DNA of 64,000 nucleotides from IMG/VR virus record IMGVR_UViG_2775507096_000001, positions 34,757-98,756 of that record; one strand, written 5' to 3'. The translations under genes were made by a program, and so were the position numbers. The notes under the pieces were generated by a model. That model was given only the letters and a program-made list of their open reading frames with translations. It was not told the origin of the DNA and ran no database searches. Shown piece by piece: positions 1,630-34,949 of this stretch. The stretch is from a virus (taxonomy: Duplodnaviria; Caudoviricetes). Each line of letters begins with the position of its first letter. Position 1 is the stretch's first letter.

Positions 1630-2049
1630 ATGGACCTCGCCACCTGCACCTACCAGGAGTTCACGCCCGAGATGGGCGCTCCGATCCGCACCACCGCAGG
1701 CCACCCCAGATTCACGCTCGGCTACGAACTGCGCGGCCACGCCCGGCTCATCACACCGACTCGGGAACTGCTCGCCCAGAACCTCCCCCAGGACGCGTAC
1801 GAGTTCAGCTACCGGCGCATCCTGAACGGCCACGGCATCGACCGCATCTACGCCGAACTGGCCGGCCTCGCCGGCCGCAACGGCGGTGCCCGCCTGGTCC
1901 TGCTCTGCTTCGACCGCCTCGACAAGCTGCCCCCGGCGGACGCCTGGTGCCACCGGCTGCACTTCGCGAAGTGGTGGCTGGAGCAGACCGGCGAGCCGAT
2001 CCCCGAACTCGGCGCCCAGCGGCCGACCCCGCCGCCCTCCCTCTTCTGA
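1630..2049 (+). CDS. DUF488-like protein
   Basis: LVLLCFD...WCHR...AKW motif typical of DUF488; AAGGA RBS. Confidence 0.65.
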   Translation: MDLATCTYQEFTPEMGAPIRTTAGHPRFTLGYELRGHARLITPTRELLAQNLPQDAYEFSYRRILNGHGIDRIYAELAGLAGRNGGARLVLLCFDRLDKLPPADAWCHRLHFAKWWLEQTGEPIPELGAQRPTPPPSLF

Positions 2050-9288: not shown

Positions 9289-9969
9289 ATGGCCACAGGA
9301 TGGACGATCCGCCCGATCCGCCTGCCCGACGAGCACCTGCCCACCGGCACCCGCGAGGGCGACTGGCAGTGCAGGGCCTGCGCCACGCCCTGGCCCTGCG
9401 AGACCGCCGGCGAGTTCCTGCGGCAGGGCCGCTGCACCTGCGGCGCCACCACCTGGTGGGAGACCCGAGGCCCACGGAACTGGCACGTCGGGCCCCGCTG
9501 CTACACGGCGACCGACGTCATCGTGCGCCAGGCCGCCGACCTGAAGGCGTACCGGGAGGCGCACCCGCACTACCCGCCGTCCCACTACTACCCGCCCAAG
9601 CCCAGGCGCGTCCGCCGGCAGAAGCCGCCGCACCGGCACCGCCCGGCCGCGCCCGGCGACATCCGCCCCGGCACCTGGACCTGGGTCAAGCCTGGAGCCC
9701 TGCACCCCGGCTGGGGCGACATCCACCAGCACGCCATGATCACCCGGCCCGGCCTGCCCAAGTGCGAGGTGTGGCTGACACTCGACGGCACCGTGCACGA
9801 CGTAAAGGCAGACCAGCTCATCCTGGCCGGCAGGCCCCGCAAGGACCGGCCCGCCTGGTGGGAATGGACGGTCGCCGCTCACCTCAACCACGACAGACCC
9901 GCAGCCCAGGAGAGCGGGAACCATACCGCGGTCCAACTGGACCTGCTCAGCGGCCACACGGACGTCTAA
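9289..9969 (+). CDS. Hypothetical Trp/Cys-rich protein (226 aa)
   Basis: H...CRAC..WPC and CTC motifs; ends in QLDLL. Confidence 0.68.
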   Translation: MATGWTIRPIRLPDEHLPTGTREGDWQCRACATPWPCETAGEFLRQGRCTCGATTWWETRGPRNWHVGPRCYTATDVIVRQAADLKAYREAHPHYPPSHYYPPKPRRVRRQKPPHRHRPAAPGDIRPGTWTWVKPGALHPGWGDIHQHAMITRPGLPKCEVWLTLDGTVHDVKADQLILAGRPRKDRPAWWEWTVAAHLNHDRPAAQESGNHTAVQLDLLSGHTDV

Positions 9970-10069
9970 GCAGACCAACCCCCCGAGCCTTCCCCCACTC
10001 CAAGACCAGACAACGAGGCCGTCACAGGCGGAACCCCGGACCTCACGGCGCGGACAACGCCCCCATCTG

Positions 10070-10126
10070 CCAGCCTTGCAGAAGTCTCAAACAGGCTTAT
10101 GCAAGGCTGGCAGATGGGGGTACTCT
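10070..10126 (+). promoter_or_regulatory. Probable leaderless promoter and operator of the PadR gene
   Basis: Inverted repeat CCAGCCTTGCA...TGCAAGGCTGG; -10 TACTCT (10121) 6 nt before the ATG. Confidence 0.55.
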
Positions 10127-10132
10127 CGTGTC

Positions 10133-10477
10133 ATGGAACAGAAGGACCTCACGCCCGCGGCGGTGAGGATCGCACAGACCTTCCTGGAAGACCCGACCCG
10201 CCGCTTCTACGCCACCGAACTGATGGAAGCCGCCCGCGTCGGCAGCGGCTCCCTCTACCCCGCCCTCGCCCGCATGCAGAAAGCCGGCTGGGTGGAAGAG
10301 GAGGACGAAGACGAGGAGACCGCCCGGCAGAACAACCGAAGGGCCCGCCGCTACTACTGGATGACCGGCGAAGGCGTCCGGGAAGCGCACTGCGCCCTCG
10401 TTGAACTGAGTGAAAGCGTGCGTCCGCCGGCATCCTCGCCGGGCTGGGGCCTCAACCCGAGCCCCAAGGGGGTCTGA
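10133..10477 (+). CDS. PadR-family winged-helix regulator
   Basis: FYATEL...GSGSLYPALARMQKAGWV...RRYYWMTGEG. Confidence 0.88.
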   Translation: MEQKDLTPAAVRIAQTFLEDPTRRFYATELMEAARVGSGSLYPALARMQKAGWVEEEDEDEETARQNNRRARRYYWMTGEGVREAHCALVELSESVRPPASSPGWGLNPSPKGV

Positions 10478-10482
10478 CCGAC

Positions 10483-11100
10483 ATGCACAACGCGATCGGC
10501 GCCAACCTGGCCACCAAGGCCGCCGAGGGAGCAACCTTCCTCGGCGAGGACTTCAACGGTTGGCGCGTCGCCTTCATCGTCGGAGTCATCGTGCCCATCG
10601 TCTGGGAGCTGGGCACTACCCTGACGCGACTGGCCACGCTAAGGCTCCCGTTCCTCGTGCTCTACGCGGCCCGGCTGAGCACCCCCAAGGAGGACTGGCC
10701 CCACCTCTCCCACGCCTGGAAGAACGAGCTGCACTTCATCCTCGACGACCCCTCGAAGAACTGGGCGCTCCGCTCCCTTAAGGGCTTGCTCTTCGCACTG
10801 CCCCTAGCGATTGGTGCAGCCCGTATCACCGCCAAGGTCGGTCGGGCCCGGGGTGCTTCCCGCCGCCGGAAACAACGCAAGTTGACCTGGTACGGCGAAC
10901 GGGCCAGCAGCATCGTGGGGTTCACGGCAGCCGTCGTATCCGTTGCGCAGTTGATTGGCGTGTCCACTTGGCCGATGATCCTGTTCACCGTACTGGGTTC
11001 CTTTGCGGTGCTGGTGATGTTCGCCGTGATGCTGGCCCGGCCGCGGAAGGTCAAAGGCGGCAGCGGCGACGAGGACTCCGACAAGTCCAGGCTGATGTAA
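10483..11100 (+). CDS. Multi-pass membrane protein downstream of PadR
   Basis: Several hydrophobic segments; lower GC3 in the 3' half. Confidence 0.7.
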   Translation: MHNAIGANLATKAAEGATFLGEDFNGWRVAFIVGVIVPIVWELGTTLTRLATLRLPFLVLYAARLSTPKEDWPHLSHAWKNELHFILDDPSKNWALRSLKGLLFALPLAIGAARITAKVGRARGASRRRKQRKLTWYGERASSIVGFTAAVVSVAQLIGVSTWPMILFTVLGSFAVLVMFAVMLARPRKVKGGSGDEDSDKSRLM

Positions 11101-11144: not shown

Positions 11145-11218
11145 GCGCTGGTGCGTGTAAGCAACACGGCCCGACTTCCAGTCGGGCGTTCCAGGTGCAA
11201 GCCCTGGCCGGCGCTCCA
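11145..11218 (+). tRNA. tRNA-Gly (anticodon UCC) with atypical D- and T-loops and encoded CCA
   Basis: Acceptor GCGCTGG/CCGGCGC + T73 + CCA; D-stem CGTG/CACG with loop TAAGCAA; anticodon stem CCCGA/TCGGG with loop CTTCCAG (TCC at 11177-11179); T-stem CCAGG/CCTGG with loop TGCAAGC. Confidence 0.85.
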
Positions 11219-11256
11219 CGAAGGCCCCACCCAAGCCCCCGGGTGGGGCCCTTCGC
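11219..11256 (+). terminator. Hairpin directly after the tRNA (terminator or processing signal)
   Basis: GAAGGCCCCACCC-loop-GGGTGGGGCCCTTC. Confidence 0.55.
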
Positions 11257-11333
11257 ATTCCGTCCCACCGCTGACAATGGGCCACCGAACCCGCAGGTGT
11301 GCGCACTGCGCAGACGGACTTCAGGAGCGGCCC

Positions 11334-12677
11334 ATGTTCCACGGCTCGATACCCGCGCCCCTCCGCTCGATCATCTACGAGCACGCCGGGACCTGGCCCG
11401 GCGAGGACATCTACGTCGGCTGCTCGGGGAATTTCACGATCGAGCGGGTGCTGCACGCCCGGTTCGGCGACTCCCGCCGCGTCCACGGCAACGACATCCA
11501 GGCGTACAGCTGCGCCCTCGGCTGGTACCTCGCCGGCGACCCGCTCAACTACACACTGCGCGCGGAGTACGAGGAGTCCCTGGGCTGGCTCAAGCCCTAC
11601 CTGGAGGACCGCACAGACCTCCTCGCCACCCTGATGCTCGGCACCCGGTTCCTCCAGTACGTCGGCAAGGACGGCGCCTACTACCGGCGGATGATGGACG
11701 CCACCCGCGACCAGTGGGAGCGGATGCACGACAAGACCGCCACCAAGCTGCGCGGCCTCCAGACCCGCCTGGGCTCGTTCTTCGCCGGCGACGTCCGCGA
11801 CTACCTCGACTCCGAGGTGCCCCCGGACGCCCCCGTGGTGATGTTCCCCCCGTTCTACGCGAAGGACTACCAGGCGCAGTTCGCGAGCATCGACGCCGCG
11901 TTCGAGTGGCCCGAGCCGTCGTTCGACGAGCTGACCGAGGACGGCAAGGAACGCATCATCGAGCAGGTCCAGGACCGGCCGAACTGGGTGCTCGGCCTGC
12001 ACATCGAGCGCCCCGAGCTGCGGGACAAGCTGGCCGGCGTCGTACAGACCGCGAACCGCGGCCTGCCGATCTACGTGTACGCCGCCGCCGGCCCCCGCCG
12101 TATCGTCCGGCCCCGGCAGCCCGTCGAGCCGATCCCCATGCCGAAGATCGGGCAGGACGAGGAACTCGGCGACCGCATGACGCTCCACGTCCTCACCGGC
12201 GGCCAGTTCGCGGCGATCCGCTCCCAGTTCATGTCGAAGACCATCAAGCCCGGCAGCCCGCTCATCGCGTGCGGTGTCGCGGTCGACGGCAAGCTCATCG
12301 GCGCGTTCGCCTACCTGCCGCCCAAGTTCGACCCGAACACCGCCTACCTCATGTCGGACTTCCCCGTCTCCTGGACCCGGTACCGGCGCCTGTCGAAGCT
12401 CATCGTGATGGCCGCCTCCACGAAGGAAGCGCAGCTCCTCGTCCAGCGCAGCCTGTCCAAGCGGATCGACGGCTGGGCCACGACCGCGTTCACGGACCGG
12501 CCGAACAGCGCGAAATACGGCAGGGGCATCCCCGGCGTGAAGCTCCAGAAGCGCACCGAGCCCGGCGCCGACGGCATCCACCGCTACCAGCTCCAGTACG
12601 GCGGCCCCCTCGGCCAGTACGACCTGAACGAAGCCCTCACCCTCTGGAAGACCAAACACGGCAAGGACATGCGATGA
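11334..12677 (+). CDS. DNA-modification protein: N-terminal adenine-methyltransferase-like fold + C-terminal GNAT/Mom-like domain (447 aa)
   Basis: ATG after CAGGAG; YVGCSGNF (motif I-like), HGND, GDV, FPPFY (motif IV-like); C-terminal GVAVDGKLIGAFAY..YLMSDF..RRLSKLIV resembles a GNAT core. Confidence 0.65.
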   Translation: MFHGSIPAPLRSIIYEHAGTWPGEDIYVGCSGNFTIERVLHARFGDSRRVHGNDIQAYSCALGWYLAGDPLNYTLRAEYEESLGWLKPYLEDRTDLLATLMLGTRFLQYVGKDGAYYRRMMDATRDQWERMHDKTATKLRGLQTRLGSFFAGDVRDYLDSEVPPDAPVVMFPPFYAKDYQAQFASIDAAFEWPEPSFDELTEDGKERIIEQVQDRPNWVLGLHIERPELRDKLAGVVQTANRGLPIYVYAAAGPRRIVRPRQPVEPIPMPKIGQDEELGDRMTLHVLTGGQFAAIRSQFMSKTIKPGSPLIACGVAVDGKLIGAFAYLPPKFDPNTAYLMSDFPVSWTRYRRLSKLIVMAASTKEAQLLVQRSLSKRIDGWATTAFTDRPNSAKYGRGIPGVKLQKRTEPGADGIHRYQLQYGGPLGQYDLNEALTLWKTKHGKDMR

Positions 12678-13603
12678 CCACCAGCAGCCAGATCAGGCCC
12701 CGCCTCGTCCAGCGCGACCCGCGCCGCCTCACCCGCCTCGCCGTGAACGCGCACTACCAGACCAAGGAGGAGTACGACCGGCTCGTCGCGAACATCCGCG
12801 AGGACGGCTGCCTCACCTCCATCCCGCTGATCTACGGCGCCGGCGAGTACCCGGAGGGCGAGGAGCTGATCGTCTCCGGTAACCACCGCTGCGACGCCTC
12901 GGTAGAAGCCGGCCTGGACGAGATCACCTGCCTGCTCATCGACGACCCGCAGAGCCGCGACCAGCTCATCGCCCGCCAGCTGTCCCACAACGCCATCACC
13001 GGCAAGGACGACCCGGCCACCCTCCAGCAGCTGTACGACCAGATCGAAGACGTGGACTGGCGGGCCTACTCCGGCCTGGACGACGCCCAGCTCCAGCTCC
13101 TCGCCGAGGTCAGCCCCGAAGGGCTCTCCGAAGCGAATCTGGACTTCGCCACCGTGAGCCTGATCTTCCTGCCGATGGAGCTGGAAGCCGCCCGGGAAGC
13201 CTTCGAGCAGGCCCGCCTCGGCCAGAACGAGAGCTGGCTCGCCGCACGCGCCGACTACCAGCAGACCCTGGACACGCTCGCCTCCACGCACGCCGCGCAC
13301 AAGGTCGGCAACGTCGCCACAGCCCTCCACGCCATCCTCGCGATCGTCGAACGCCACCTGGACGAGCTTCAGGAGGGCTACACCGCCCCCGACGGCACCC
13401 ACCTCCACACCGGGCACGTCGGCCTGGAGACCGTCCTCGGCGCCCGCACCCTGCCCGCACCCGCCGCCGTCACCATCAACAAGGCCATCGCAGCCGCAGA
13501 AGGACGCGGCGAGATCGAGCAGGGGCAGGGCTGGCGCCTCCTCGAACGCCTCGCCGGCGAGTACCTGTCCGGCCCGAACCACACCCCCAGCGACCCGGCA
13601 TGA
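12674..13603 (+). CDS. ParB/Sulfiredoxin-like N-terminal domain protein (309 aa)
   Basis: ATGA overlap with upstream gene; YDRLVANIREDG..IP..IVSGNHR..A..AG..I.C..RQLSHN. Confidence 0.8.
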   Translation: MTTSSQIRPRLVQRDPRRLTRLAVNAHYQTKEEYDRLVANIREDGCLTSIPLIYGAGEYPEGEELIVSGNHRCDASVEAGLDEITCLLIDDPQSRDQLIARQLSHNAITGKDDPATLQQLYDQIEDVDWRAYSGLDDAQLQLLAEVSPEGLSEANLDFATVSLIFLPMELEAAREAFEQARLGQNESWLAARADYQQTLDTLASTHAAHKVGNVATALHAILAIVERHLDELQEGYTAPDGTHLHTGHVGLETVLGARTLPAPAAVTINKAIAAAEGRGEIEQGQGWRLLERLAGEYLSGPNHTPSDPA

Positions 13604-13815
13604 GCAGCGTCGGCATCCAGTTCATAGGCGGACCAGCCGACGGGCGAGCCCTCGCCATCCCCGGCGACCCCTGGAACCCACCCCACACCTACGAACTCCG
13701 CAATGTGGAAGGCCAGCGACTCTTCTACCGGCGTGAGGTCAACCCAGGCGACGACGGCCCCCTCTGGCACTACCGCTACGACCGCACCGTGCAACCGGAG
13801 GGACGGGCCACATGA
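13600..13815 (+). CDS. Hypothetical protein (71 aa)
   Basis: ATGA overlaps at both ends; FIGGPADG motif. Confidence 0.72.
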   Translation: MSSVGIQFIGGPADGRALAIPGDPWNPPHTYELRNVEGQRLFYRREVNPGDDGPLWHYRYDRTVQPEGRAT

Positions 13816-14408
13816 GCACCCGCCCACCCATCACCCTCAGCCCCGAACTCGACCCCTGGGAACGTCAGCCCAACGAGACCCCCCACAAACACGGACAGTT
13901 CGCCACCTACCGGGACCTCGGCCGCACCCGCACCCTGACCGAAGCCGCGCAGAGGCTGACACTCGCGTACGGGCACGTGAGGAACCTCGCCGCCCAGTAC
14001 CGGTGGCGAGAACGGGTCGAGGCGTACGACCGGCACCTGGACCGCCAGTACGAGGCGATGTGGCTGGAGGAGCGCCGCAAGGCCGCCGAGACCGACGCGA
14101 AGATCCTCGGCGCGGCGATCGGCAAGCTCGCCCAGCGGCTCACCACGCTGAACGCGGCCGAGCTGTCCGCCGGCGACTTCATCCGGCTGATGGACGTCGC
14201 CATGCGCCACCGCCGGGTGCTGTTCGGCGACCCCACGGAGACCATCGCCGTCACCAGCGAGGGCAGCAACGCGCTCGCGCAGCACTTCGCCGACTTCGCG
14301 CAGATGAGCCCGGAGCAGCGCCGGGCCCGACTCGGCGAGCTGGCGGCGTCGGTGAACCAGCGCATCAAGGCCGTCGACGGTGGCGACGACGAGGACGAGG
14401 AGGAGTAG
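13812..14408 (+). CDS. terS: Terminase small subunit (probable)
   Basis: PWERQPNET..F..YRDLG..R.L...WRERVEAYD helix-turn-helix-type motif; directly upstream of terL. Confidence 0.72.
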   Translation: MSTRPPITLSPELDPWERQPNETPHKHGQFATYRDLGRTRTLTEAAQRLTLAYGHVRNLAAQYRWRERVEAYDRHLDRQYEAMWLEERRKAAETDAKILGAAIGKLAQRLTTLNAAELSAGDFIRLMDVAMRHRRVLFGDPTETIAVTSEGSNALAQHFADFAQMSPEQRRARLGELAASVNQRIKAVDGGDDEDEEE

Positions 14409-14411
14409 CCC

Positions 14412-16004
14412 GTGACGACGGCCGTGGACGAGCTGGAGCACCTGGACGACGCGGAGGTCTACCGGCAGTTGGAGGCCGCGCGCCGCGCGATGAGCGCCGA
14501 CCTGCTACGGGACCCGGTGACGCTCGCCCGCGGCCTCGACCGCACGTTCCGGATGCGCCCGCACCTGAAGCTCATCGGTGAAGCCCTGGCCGAGGTAGGG
14601 CACGGCGGCCCGGACCGGCTGCTGATCCTGACCCCGCCCCAGGTGGGGAAGAGCACGACGGTCGCGGAGTGGTTCCCGTTCTGGTGGCTGTGCACGTACC
14701 CGGGCGACAAGGTCGCGGTCACCTCGTACGGCGACGACCTGGCGCTGCGACGCGGTAAGCGGATCCGCTCGTACGTCGAGGAGTACGGCGAGGAGTGGGA
14801 GCTGCGCCTGAAGGGCGGCTCCGGGGCGATGCAGGACTGGGAGGTCACCAAGGGCGGCGGTGTCCGCTCGGTGTCCGTCGGCAAGGGCCTGACCGGCTTC
14901 GACGTGAACCTGCTGATCATCGACGACCCGCACAAGGACCGCGCGGACGCCGAATCCGAGGCCGCCCGGCGGGCGCTGCACGACTGGTACAGCTCGGCGG
15001 CCCTGACCCGTCTCCAGCCCGACCGCAGCGCGGTGGTGGCGATCCAGACCCGGTGGCACCCCGACGATTTCGCCGGCCGCCGTATCGAGGAAGAGGGCCG
15101 GGTCGAGGACGGCGGCCGGTGGAAGGTGATCCACCTGCCCGCGGTCGCCGACCCCAAGTTCGGCCCGGACCCGCTCGGCCGGGAGGCGGGGGAGCCGCTG
15201 CCGCACCCGAAGATCCCCACCCGGGACGTGGCCCGGCTGCGCGGCTGGTGGGCGCAGAAGAAGGCAACGTCGATCGTCCGGGACTGGCACGCCCTCTATC
15301 AGGGCGACCCGCAGCCCGGTGAAGGAGCACTCGTGTCCGAGGAACTGCTGCGCCTGCTCCGCGACACCACCACACCGGTGGAGCCGCAGAAGATCGCCGT
15401 GTCCATCGACCCGTCCGGCGGCGGCCGGGACACCGCGGGCGTCATCGGTGGCTTCCTCGGCGACGACGGCCGCGTCTGGATCACCGACGACGTCTCGGCG
15501 CCGATGTCGTCGGCGGAGTGGTCCATGGCCGCGTGCCGGCTGGCGTACCGCACGAACGCGTCGATCATCTACGTGGAGTGGAACTTCGGCCGCGACATGT
15601 GCGTGCTGGCGGTCCAGACGTCGTGGGAGAAGCTCCAGCGGGAAGGGGAGATCCCGAACCACGTCCTGATGCCGGCGGTCCTCCCGGTGCGCGCGAAGCA
15701 GGGGAAGCTGCTGAGGGCGGAGCCGATCGCGCAGCAGATGGTGCAGGACAAGGTCCGGCTGCGCGGGGTGTTCACCGACCTGGAACGGGAGTGGGCGACC
15801 TGGCAGCCGACCGACCCCGACAGCCCCGGCCGGATCGACGCCTCCTGTGTCCTGGTGTACGGCCTGATCCCCGAGGCCAACGCGGGCGCGATCGTCCACG
15901 CTCCGCTCCCACAGGCCCCCCAGCCCAGCGGCGCGCGCACCGGCATACCGAGCAGCGTGCAACCGAACCGGCCGGCATCCCCGTACGGGCGTCGTATCGG
16001 CTGA
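14412..16004 (+). CDS. terL: Terminase large subunit
   Basis: Walker A PPQVGKS, Walker B LLIIDDP, QTRWH, LYQG.P, nuclease SIDPS...E.N.G...K..RAEP...SPGRIDA. Confidence 0.93.
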   Translation: MTTAVDELEHLDDAEVYRQLEAARRAMSADLLRDPVTLARGLDRTFRMRPHLKLIGEALAEVGHGGPDRLLILTPPQVGKSTTVAEWFPFWWLCTYPGDKVAVTSYGDDLALRRGKRIRSYVEEYGEEWELRLKGGSGAMQDWEVTKGGGVRSVSVGKGLTGFDVNLLIIDDPHKDRADAESEAARRALHDWYSSAALTRLQPDRSAVVAIQTRWHPDDFAGRRIEEEGRVEDGGRWKVIHLPAVADPKFGPDPLGREAGEPLPHPKIPTRDVARLRGWWAQKKATSIVRDWHALYQGDPQPGEGALVSEELLRLLRDTTTPVEPQKIAVSIDPSGGGRDTAGVIGGFLGDDGRVWITDDVSAPMSSAEWSMAACRLAYRTNASIIYVEWNFGRDMCVLAVQTSWEKLQREGEIPNHVLMPAVLPVRAKQGKLLRAEPIAQQMVQDKVRLRGVFTDLEREWATWQPTDPDSPGRIDASCVLVYGLIPEANAGAIVHAPLPQAPQPSGARTGIPSSVQPNRPASPYGRRIG

Positions 16005-34326: not shown

Positions 34327-34949
34327 TGGCGGGGAGCTGCTGTGGGAGCGTCCGGGCCCTCCCGCGCCTGGACCCGGCCGAGTGCAACACCATGCGACGG
34401 ACTGCGTCCGGGCTCCTGGTGCCGGAAGTGCAGCTTCAGGCCGGGCCGGGTATCGCGGTCACGCCGCCGGCGGACGGGGCGTGTCCGGCGGTGTGGCAGG
34501 TGGCCGCTGACGGCTCGTGGGCGCAGAACGCGACGCTCCAGTTCTCGCACGCCCTGGACGGTGCCGACCGGGTATACGAGCAGGTGACGGAGGTCCCGGC
34601 CCTGACGATCCCACGCGCCGGGGTGTGGGAAGTCGACTACAACGCCCGCGCCACCGCGGGGATGCCCGCCAGTACGACGGGCGCCGAGTACGTCACCACC
34701 GCTCTCTACAAGAACGGCGCGGCGATCGTCGGAAGCGAAGCCATGATCGTCGGCGTGAACGGGGCGGAGACCGGCAACCAGGCGACCGGCGGCCTCAGCT
34801 TCCTGCACACCTTCGCTGCGGGCGACGTCGTCACGCTGTGGGCGTACCGGATCGGGCAGACCGGCACTGCATCCGTCGTCTCGAACGCCGACGGCCGGAC
34901 GCGGATCTCGATGCACTGGATCGGTCCGACGGGAGACACGCCAGCATGA
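34326..34949 (+). CDS. Fibre-tip-like protein with C1q/BclA-like C-terminal domain (207 aa)
   Basis: TGATG coupling; LTIPRAGVWEVDY..LYKNG..AAGDVVTLWAY. Confidence 0.65.
   Translation: MAGSCCGSVRALPRLDPAECNTMRRTASGLLVPEVQLQAGPGIAVTPPADGACPAVWQVAADGSWAQNATLQFSHALDGADRVYEQVTEVPALTIPRAGVWEVDYNARATAGMPASTTGAEYVTTALYKNGAAIVGSEAMIVGVNGAETGNQATGGLSFLHTFAAGDVVTLWAYRIGQTGTASVVSNADGRTRISMHWIGPTGDTPA

Follow-up and report, generated by a model that had tools for sequence, protein, structure and literature searches.

To our knowledge, Mom of phage Mu, which uses a host tRNA, is so far the sole enzyme whose modification of DNA has been shown to depend on a tRNA. Glycine tRNAs also serve outside translation in staphylococci, where non-proteinogenic tRNA-Gly(UCC) species feed the FemXAB peptidoglycan transferases and bind EF-Tu weakly. 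Mom, a GNAT-fold enzyme, moves the glycine of Gly-tRNAGly to the N6 of adenine in double-stranded DNA, and the resulting glycyl-deoxyadenosine rearranges to N6-carbamoylmethyl-deoxyadenosine (Silva et al. 2026, PMC13219725). A ParB homologue encoded beside a phage thymine dioxygenase is required for the activity of that enzyme on double-stranded DNA (2026 PNAS, PMC13229309). Here, we analyze a locus in a stretch of 64,000 nucleotides (the window) from an actinobacterial phage of the Caudoviricetes, IMG/VR record IMGVR_UViG_2775507096_000001 (98,756 bp, 70.6% GC; the window covers positions 34,757 to 98,756). In this locus a tRNA-Gly-like RNA gene, a gene for a fusion of a Dam-like and a GNAT-fold domain, and a ParB-like gene stand together as a kit, which probably supplies a private, non-translating glycine donor for the modification of phage DNA.

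The kit is made up of the following features:

11145 to 11218, plus strand: tRNA-Gly(UCC)-like RNA gene of 74 nt with an encoded CCA end (ARAGORN, sequence, covariance model R1, predicted fold)
11219 to 11255, plus strand: GC-rich, terminator-like hairpin with a stem of about 14 bp and no T-run, directly after the CCA end (minimum free energy fold)
11334 to 12149, plus strand: N-terminal Dam-like domain of the fusion enzyme, residues 1-272 (PF22555 DAM-like-phage1, residues 2-272, 1e-106)
12171 to 12677, plus strand: C-terminal GNAT-fold domain of the fusion enzyme, residues 280-447, stop codon included (PF22559 GNAT-phage-like, residues 280-443, 5e-58)
12674 to 13603, plus strand: ParB/Srx-like partner of 309 aa (ATGA overlap with the stop of the enzyme gene; PHROG matches)

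A sequence-only reading of the window had already described a 74-nt tRNA 115 nt upstream of a 447-aa protein, a fusion of a methyltransferase-like fold and a GNAT domain in that protein, and an ATGA-coupled ParB-like partner. All of these proved to be real: ARAGORN and the coordinates of the open reading frame (ORF) agree on the RNA gene and on the gap of 115 nt, the fusion is backed by PF22555, PF22559 and structure matches, and the partner by PHROG matches to ParB-like families and the visible overlap. The tRNA features that had been listed are likewise all present. The acceptor stem, GCGCUGG/CCGGCGC, provides G1-C72, C2-G71 and G3-C70, followed by U73 and the CCA end, and the anticodon loop, CUUCCAG, contains C35 and C36. 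The T-loop is UGCAAGC, the D-loop is UAAGCAA and has no GG, and pair 51-63 is A-U.

In the window, this gene is the sole tRNA called by ARAGORN, as tRNA-Gly(tcc). The Gly-TCC call and a low tRNA score had both been expected, and the low score was borne out, as a search of a 181-nt slice with the Rfam tRNA model RF00005 (threshold 29 bits) gave no match, not even with the cut-off relaxed to E<=10. R1, a covariance model built from 55 sequences of the homologous loci, detects the gene with 74 bits (E = 2e-13) and has no second match in the window. The minimum free energy fold of 11145-11260 is a cloverleaf plus the 3' hairpin (-67.4 kcal/mol, z = -5.2), and the anticodon arm is predicted to form a stem of 8 bp that leaves UCC as a triloop. 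The 3' hairpin was not called by a simple terminator scan, because it has no T tract. Similar hairpins are found 3' of the tRNA in Gordonia phages. A check of public RNA runs listed none with the locus.

The linkage between tRNA and enzyme gene is far beyond chance, and the tRNA accompanies that gene as a conserved partner under structural constraint. We pooled 170 homologous loci from cultured phages, IMG/VR contigs (single-protein and alignment searches), one genome per bacterial species, and a few contig look-ups, and the tRNA is present in 134 of them. Of 134 plus-strand tRNA copies, 127 lie 0-400 nt upstream of the enzyme gene and on the same strand, at a median distance of 76 nt. The viral set comprises 84 loci, namely the window, 80 IMG/VR contigs and three records of cultured phages; R1 found the RNA in 68 of these, as well as in 65 of 80 bacterial-genome loci, mostly prophages of Streptomyces, Micromonospora, Kitasatospora, Actinoplanes and Nonomuraea. 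When the enzyme sequences were clustered by identity to limit pseudoreplication, 28 of the 46 clusters formed at 70% identity contained loci with a tRNA, as did 13 of the 19 formed at 50%. The tRNA keeps its upstream position even where the enzymes are as little as 33% identical, from phages of Mycobacterium hosts to low-GC metagenomic phages. For example, Mycobacterium phage Jeon has an annotated tRNA-Gly(tcc) 36 nt upstream of an enzyme homologue that is 43% identical. In the Gordonia phages Jollymon and Clawz, the tRNA was missed both by ARAGORN and by the annotators; R1 recovers it, and its acceptor stem, U73 and CCA end can be recognized by eye.

All module tRNAs in the 170 loci are of the Gly type. 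Over 563 kb of homologous viral loci, every tRNA reported by ARAGORN is Gly-type or has a Gly-like anticodon loop, and almost all are located just upstream of the enzyme gene. Two ARAGORN calls of tRNA-Arg(cct) were read as false positives (89 nt, minus strand, inside GC-rich coding sequence). No tRNA was detectable with Rfam in the whole genomes of Jeon and Clawz, nor in two viral contigs of 62-111 kb. With no other detectable tRNA in these phages, the Gly-like gene is not part of a tRNA array. In more distant clades, reached by single-protein scans and contig look-ups, nine loci were found, one of them with a tRNA-Gly, located downstream. At two loci, L028:2760-2833 and L196:5768-5841, a Gly-like tRNA was seen downstream of the enzyme and ParB-like genes; the linkage is kept there and the order is not fixed. 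Two loci have tandem duplicates of the module tRNA (L050:1478-1626 and L060:2261-2424), and in the latter the two anticodon loops differ (CAUCCUG and CUACCCG).

The constraint pattern on the module tRNAs tells charging and decoding apart. The identity set of the bacterial glycyl-tRNA synthetase (GlyRS) consists of G1-C72, C2-G71, G3-C70, U73, C35 and C36. Among 116 distinct module tRNAs (63 from viral contigs and 53 further ones from bacterial genomes), C36 and U73 are present in all, and C35 and G1-C2-G3 in 115 each; as far as can be read from the sequences, the kept positions match this identity set exactly. Compensatory changes occur in 18 of the 22 cloverleaf pairs (55 sequences). In the acceptor stem, covariation is free at pairs 4-7, each of which has 25-35 double changes, and pairs 1-3 are invariant. 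The anticodon loop is far looser. Position 34 is U in 73, C in 25, A in 15 and G in three of the 116 tRNAs, U33 is kept in 83 and lost in 33, and 21 have a pyrimidine at position 37. Watson-Crick pairing of 32 with 38, mostly as C-G, is seen in 110. A canonical decoding loop, with seven nucleotides, U33, a purine at 37 and unpaired 32/38, is found in three of the 116. In contrast, all of 15 distinct chromosomal tRNA-Gly genes, drawn as a matched control from five complete kit-carrying genomes, have U33, A37, A38 and a canonical anticodon loop, and most of them have the D-loop GG (14/15), a UUCGA T-loop (14/15) and G51-C63 (12/15). Pair 51-63 is A-U in 35 of the 63 viral module tRNAs and G-C in one. 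Related Streptomyces prophages have near-identical tRNAs that all carry C33 and vary between A, C and U at position 34. Because the identity positions are kept and the decoding positions are free, selection appears to have preserved what the synthetase needs and released what the ribosome needs.

The sequence-only reading had proposed that the window tRNA kept its GlyRS identity and lost translation-associated features of the T- and D-loops, and that a tRNA-Gly with a UGC T-loop might be conserved upstream of the homologues. The retained identity, the loss of decoding features and the tRNA-Gly linkage hold for the family. The place of the deviation was misjudged, since the family-wide change lies in the anticodon loop and not in the T- and D-loops, and the UGCAA T-loop is a recurrent clade feature (G55 in 22/116).

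The staphylococcal tRNA-Gly(UCC) species resemble the module tRNAs in keeping the charging identity, in their D- and T-loop departures and 51-63 A-U pair, and in serving a non-ribosomal transferase, which is the putative role of the module tRNAs as well. Unlike them, the kit tRNA is encoded by a phage and physically linked to the enzyme gene, and it departs mainly in the anticodon loop, which should abolish decoding and not only weaken the binding of EF-Tu. The kit also differs from the Fem system in the partner, which belongs to PF22559, and in the presumed acceptor, DNA instead of a peptidoglycan precursor. An additional tRNA-Gly(UCC), unusual in its T arm and normal in its anticodon loop, is found on two Streptomycetaceae chromosomes (L183, beside tRNA-Gly(GCC) genes, and L189/L194); one of these tRNAs has UGCAA instead of UUCGA. 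These may be host cell-wall (Fem-type) glycine tRNAs, unrelated to the phage kit.

The fusion enzyme is encoded by the ORF at 11334-12677 and has two Pfam domains; its AlphaFold 2 model has a pLDDT of 93.6. In the Dam-like domain the order of elements is that of the alpha class, with motif I, a helical insert after strand 2 (residues 57-140) and motif IV. Structurally, the domain is most similar to T4 Dam (1yf3) and Escherichia coli Dam (2g1p), with Z = 13.2 and 189-191 residues aligned. At the sequence level, HMMER and hhalign detected no relation of the enzyme to Dam, Mom or any solved structure, and the domain gave no match to Pfam MethyltransfD12. Across 45 diverse homologues, a motif I-like VGCSGNF, which is not the FxGxG consensus, is strongly conserved (G32 in 45/45, C30 in 44/45), and D54 is invariant (45/45). 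Motif IV reads (F/Y)PPF in 43 of the 45, with F (32) or Y (11) at position 171, invariant or nearly invariant P172 and P173, and F at position 174 in 37; the window has MFPPFY and not DPPY.

The enzyme family therefore does not carry the catalytic motif (D/N/S)PP(Y/F/W). The polar D/N/S of motif IV normally contacts the N6 of adenine, and an F or Y in this place makes methylation by the domain unlikely. Its role is probably to flip out or target a base, not to methylate it. With Dam methyltransferases the domain shares the fold, the domain order, the G-x-x-G motif I-like loop, the D54 after strand 2 and the PP core, and it differs from them in the F/Y at the place of the catalytic D/N/S and in the fusion to a GNAT domain. 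Some homologues of 678-770 aa, among them P0005, P0010, P0021 and P0133, have an insertion of about 250 aa directly after FPPFY. At L024:1211-3322 the insertion bears the signature of an intein, as it starts with Cys (CLSPE...) and ends in HN with a Ser behind it, and P0133 has an HNH domain in addition. Inteins typically occupy functionally critical sites, so their place directly after FPPFY marks this site as critical. One homologue has an added C-terminal domain resembling Vsr and restriction endonucleases (REase-like).

The C-terminal domain (model pLDDT 89.4) has hundreds of GNAT matches in Foldseek. When the domain was compared exhaustively with 48,161 PDB representatives, the three best matches were the acetyltransferases 1y9k (Z = 11.4) and 3bln (11.2), together with Mom (8bv8_B, about 11.0). 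The superposition on Mu Mom (8bv8_B) has Z = 10.9-11.0 and a root-mean-square deviation of 2.9 A over 139 aligned residues. Mom, Fem and GNAT proteins had been named by the sequence-only reading as the relatives to look for. The GNAT fold was found, with Mom among the structural best, and by Pfam the domain falls into neither the Mom nor the Fem sequence family. A Pfam scan at E<=10 returned PF22559 alone for this domain, and PF25680 for Mu Mom itself. A profile search of the PDB sequences did not find 8bv8, and there was no Fem chain among the 50 structure matches listed, so that a distant relation to Fem proteins may still exist.

GNATs bind the pyrophosphate of coenzyme A (CoA) through a Q/RxxGxG/A motif in the beta4-alpha3 loop. 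In the kit enzyme this loop reads x-P-T-x-Y-K-R-L-S-K, with no glycines and no such motif. D342, F343, K355, L356, K394, Y395 and R397 are invariant or nearly invariant in the 45 homologues. In the register of the alignment with Mom, which is not significant, the catalytic S124 of Mom would fall on S354 (kept in 36/45) and the catalytic R111 near S341/D342. The model has no extra helix-turn-helix between the late strands; in Mom, the essential insertion resembling a helix-turn-helix spans residues ~175-209.

Compared with Mom (PF25680, 8bv8), the kit enzyme is likewise a phage GNAT fold without the usual CoA-binding glycine loop, and it likely shares with Mom the use of a glycine tRNA as co-substrate and a late-expressed, DNA-protective role. 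No relation in sequence could be detected between its GNAT domain and Mom, and the essential helix-turn-helix-like insertion of Mom may have its substitute in the Dam-type domain to which this GNAT domain is fused. The kit enzyme is also always paired with a ParB-like gene, and the kit usually encodes an aberrant tRNA of its own, in contrast to Mu Mom with its use of the tRNA-Gly of the host.

The ParB-like partner matches ParB-like PHROG families at about 1e-8 to 1e-9 and phrog_7405 at 8e-61, while Pfam ParB_N (PF02195) stays below its cut-off (E = 0.11). A homologue follows the enzyme gene in 84 of 84 loci tested, and the motifs SGNHR, which is of the conserved GxxHR type, and QLSHN are invariant among the homologues (31 of them for SGNHR). 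The closest parallel is 5mYOX176/ParB176 (PMC13229309), where a protein of the ParB/Srx fold is likewise encoded beside a phage DNA base-modifying enzyme. The kit differs in the partner enzyme and in its chemistry, and its pairing is known from gene adjacency.

Taken together, these results can be joined into a mechanism, which we regard as probable in its outline. The tRNA keeps every bacterial glycine identity element, hence it would probably be charged with glycine by the GlyRS of the host. As its anticodon loop is closed or scrambled, it probably cannot decode, and this loop, possibly helped by the altered T-stem and elbow, would keep the RNA off the ribosomes and create a private pool of Gly-tRNA. 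The Dam-type domain would bind DNA and flip out an adenine, and the GNAT domain would move the glycyl group from the 3' end of the tRNA to the base, by analogy with Mu Mom. The sequence-only reading had given Gly-tRNA as the donor for Mom, and this is correct (Silva et al. 2026, PMC13219725). The ParB-like protein could act as an activator or as a DNA-loading helper, as proposed here after the ParB homologues of phage thymine dioxygenases. Modification would precede packaging and protect the DNA from host nucleases; the position of the kit just ahead of the terminase genes fits with a pre-packaging step. Under this mechanism, loci without a tRNA would use the tRNA-Gly of the host, as Mu does.

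A more specific version of this proposal is that a tRNA withdrawn from translation has become the dedicated glycyl cofactor of a new, Mom-unrelated class of enzymes, made of a disabled Dam-type base-flipping domain and a GNAT domain with a ParB-like helper. For this version, we consider the chances to be about even. More speculatively, the aminoacyl-adenosine end of the tRNA may now occupy the conserved SAM-type (S-adenosylmethionine) pocket of the Dam-like domain.

Several observations weigh against the proposal of a private glycine donor, and some of them favor other explanations. The structural score of Mom is tied with those of ordinary acetyltransferases, so that the likeness is suggestive only, and hhalign of the family alignments against Mu Mom gave a probability of 0.3-0.4%. 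The UUCRA T-loop is kept in 86 of the 116 module tRNAs and the D-loop GG in 57 (26/63 viral, 31/53 bacterial), so the loss of translation-related features is not complete. Of 20 diverse module tRNAs, only 8 reach the Rfam tRNA threshold, which on the whole supports the proposal. Phages often carry tRNAs, and in Jeon the gene is annotated in GenBank as tRNA-Gly(tcc). These two points, the retained T-loops and the 8 tRNAs that pass the threshold would suit an ordinary tRNA-Gly, which supplements the reading of GGN codons or evades an anticodon nuclease and merely travels with its neighbor gene. We hold this to be very improbable, as the canonical anticodon loop is found in 3 of 116 against 15 of 15 host genes, with U33 replaced in 33, a pyrimidine at 37 in 21 and a Watson-Crick 32-38 pair in 110 of the module tRNAs. 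Furthermore, position 34 switches between U, C and A in near-identical tRNAs of related prophages, the gene is the sole tRNA in these phages, and its place upstream of one particular gene persists across diverse hosts to 33% protein identity.

The flank examined holds no tRNA in 36 of the 170 loci (21%), which means that the enzyme either can work without a private tRNA or needs no tRNA. In either case, the tRNA is an accessory and not a requirement. The motif I-like residues and the invariant D54 suggest, from conservation, that the pocket may still bind SAM or another adenosine ligand, and methyl transfer could be possible. The tRNA-less loci and the possible survival of a SAM-type pocket fit with an enzyme that modifies DNA using conventional donors, SAM through the Dam-like domain or acyl-CoA through the GNAT domain, as do the many acetyl-CoA enzymes among the best GNAT structure matches. 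The tRNA-like element would then merely be a cis-element, such as a signal for transcript processing or stability or the remnant of an integration site, and the terminator-like hairpin behind it could punctuate transcription. We judge this quite unlikely. The polar residue for methyl transfer is missing ((F/Y)PPF in 43/45), the loop for the CoA pyrophosphate is absent, and a processing signal does not need an invariant C35, C36, U73 and G1-G3 amid otherwise free variation. A remnant of integration is at odds with a full-length cloverleaf, rather than a 3' tRNA fragment, located inside the phage by the packaging genes, with tRNA-Asn, Asn and Met at the flank.

Another explanation concerns the target. 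Methyltransferases of tRNA and rRNA match the Dam-like domain with Z = 12.7, within 1 of Dam, over about 150 residues, so an RNA target has to be considered. The tRNA-like RNA could be the target of the enzyme or a cofactor that is not a donor, with no glycine passing to DNA. In the target version, the enzyme would methylate or acylate this RNA, or else the tRNA-Gly of the host, with the phage copy as decoy or antidote; alternatively, the RNA would be a scaffold or guide. TrmN, Trm14 and Trm11 score Z = 12.1-12.7, near the 13.2 of Dam, a tight tRNA-enzyme linkage suits a substrate as well as a donor, and the Mom paper (PMC13219725) discusses toxins of the GNAT type whose acetylation substrates are charged tRNAs. 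Still, this reading seems unlikely to us. The matches to Dam align 189-199 residues and include the helical insert of DNA-adenine methylases, compared with ~150 residues for the RNA methylases, and the ParB-like gene adjacent in 84/84 loci, as well as the REase-like fusion in one homologue, point to DNA. The invariant GlyRS identity and the free position 34 suit a charged donor, while a mere target has no obvious need for U73 and the pairs 1-3, and the 36 loci without the RNA speak against it as the target.

The private glycine donor combines two kinds of systems that are already known, namely tRNA-dependent DNA modification (Mom) and non-proteinogenic tRNA-Gly (the Fem system). New is the virus-encoded, probably decoding-incompetent tRNA that is physically tied to its enzyme; the Dam-like/GNAT architecture, unrelated to Mom, is new as well. 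PF22555 and PF22559 are in Pfam without a function, and the enzyme is annotated as "hypothetical protein" or "methyltransferase". A full-text literature search, necessarily incomplete, returned no description of these two families, of the kit or of the tRNA. If the proposal is true, aminoacyl-tRNA would be a recurrent donor for DNA hypermodification, and viruses would be able to evolve tRNAs for a non-translational use. Many annotations of "phage tRNA-Gly" and "hypothetical protein / methyltransferase" in actinobacteriophages would then hide an anti-restriction system. Cultured carriers that grow on laboratory hosts exist, among them the Mycobacterium phages Jeon, Taptic, D12 and PR and the Gordonia phages Clawz, Jollymon, Soos and Sting. 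The pattern in the module tRNAs would also represent a natural experiment on which features of a tRNA serve charging and which serve decoding.

Three further genes place the kit in its genomic context:

1630 to 2049, plus strand: DUF488-like gene, 139 aa (family HMM, E = 9e-36)
13812 to 14408, plus strand: 198-aa protein in the position of the small terminase (homologous family directly after the ParB-like gene in 34 loci)
14412 to 16004, plus strand: large terminase subunit (PF03237 Terminase_6N, 2.7e-8)

One small ORF lies between the ParB-like gene and the gene in the small-terminase position, whose product has no Pfam match. A second family, with helix-turn-helix and Terminase_5-like matches, occupies the same position after the ParB-like gene in 31 loci. 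On the other side of the kit, the gene immediately before the tRNA belongs in 48 of the 84 viral loci to a DUF488-like family of about 155 aa, which has weak matches to Pfam DUF488-N3a and DUF488 and is a possible fourth component of the kit. Its family HMM has a sole match in the 98.7-kb record, the gene at 1630-2049, which is located about 9 kb upstream of the kit, with inserted methylase cassettes in between. The consensus C-terminus of the family, EEQLSLF, is a motif of the beta-clamp-binding type, and the window copy ends in PPPSLF. Directly upstream of the DUF488-like gene, at 692-1519, there is a methyltransferase with an NPPF motif and the C-terminus QLDLF, which agrees with clamp-binding motifs in the methylase cassette.

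Besides the Gly-like gene, the record has tRNAs for Asn, Asn and Met only, which lie outside the window at the far left of the record (bases 465-869). The same trio adjoins a related prophage (L161:1069-1474), and it is likely the integration region of this phage group. The Gly tRNA-like element was also considered as the remnant of an integration site and was rejected as such, given its full covarying cloverleaf, its place inside the phage, and the Asn, Asn, Met flank of the record.

For the genes immediately upstream of the kit (9289-11100), the Pfam and PHROG scans gave a PadR-like regulator only. At the start of the regulator gene (10076-10477), a near-perfect hairpin of about 80 nt (10049-10130) shows sub-threshold matches to several microRNA precursor models on both strands.

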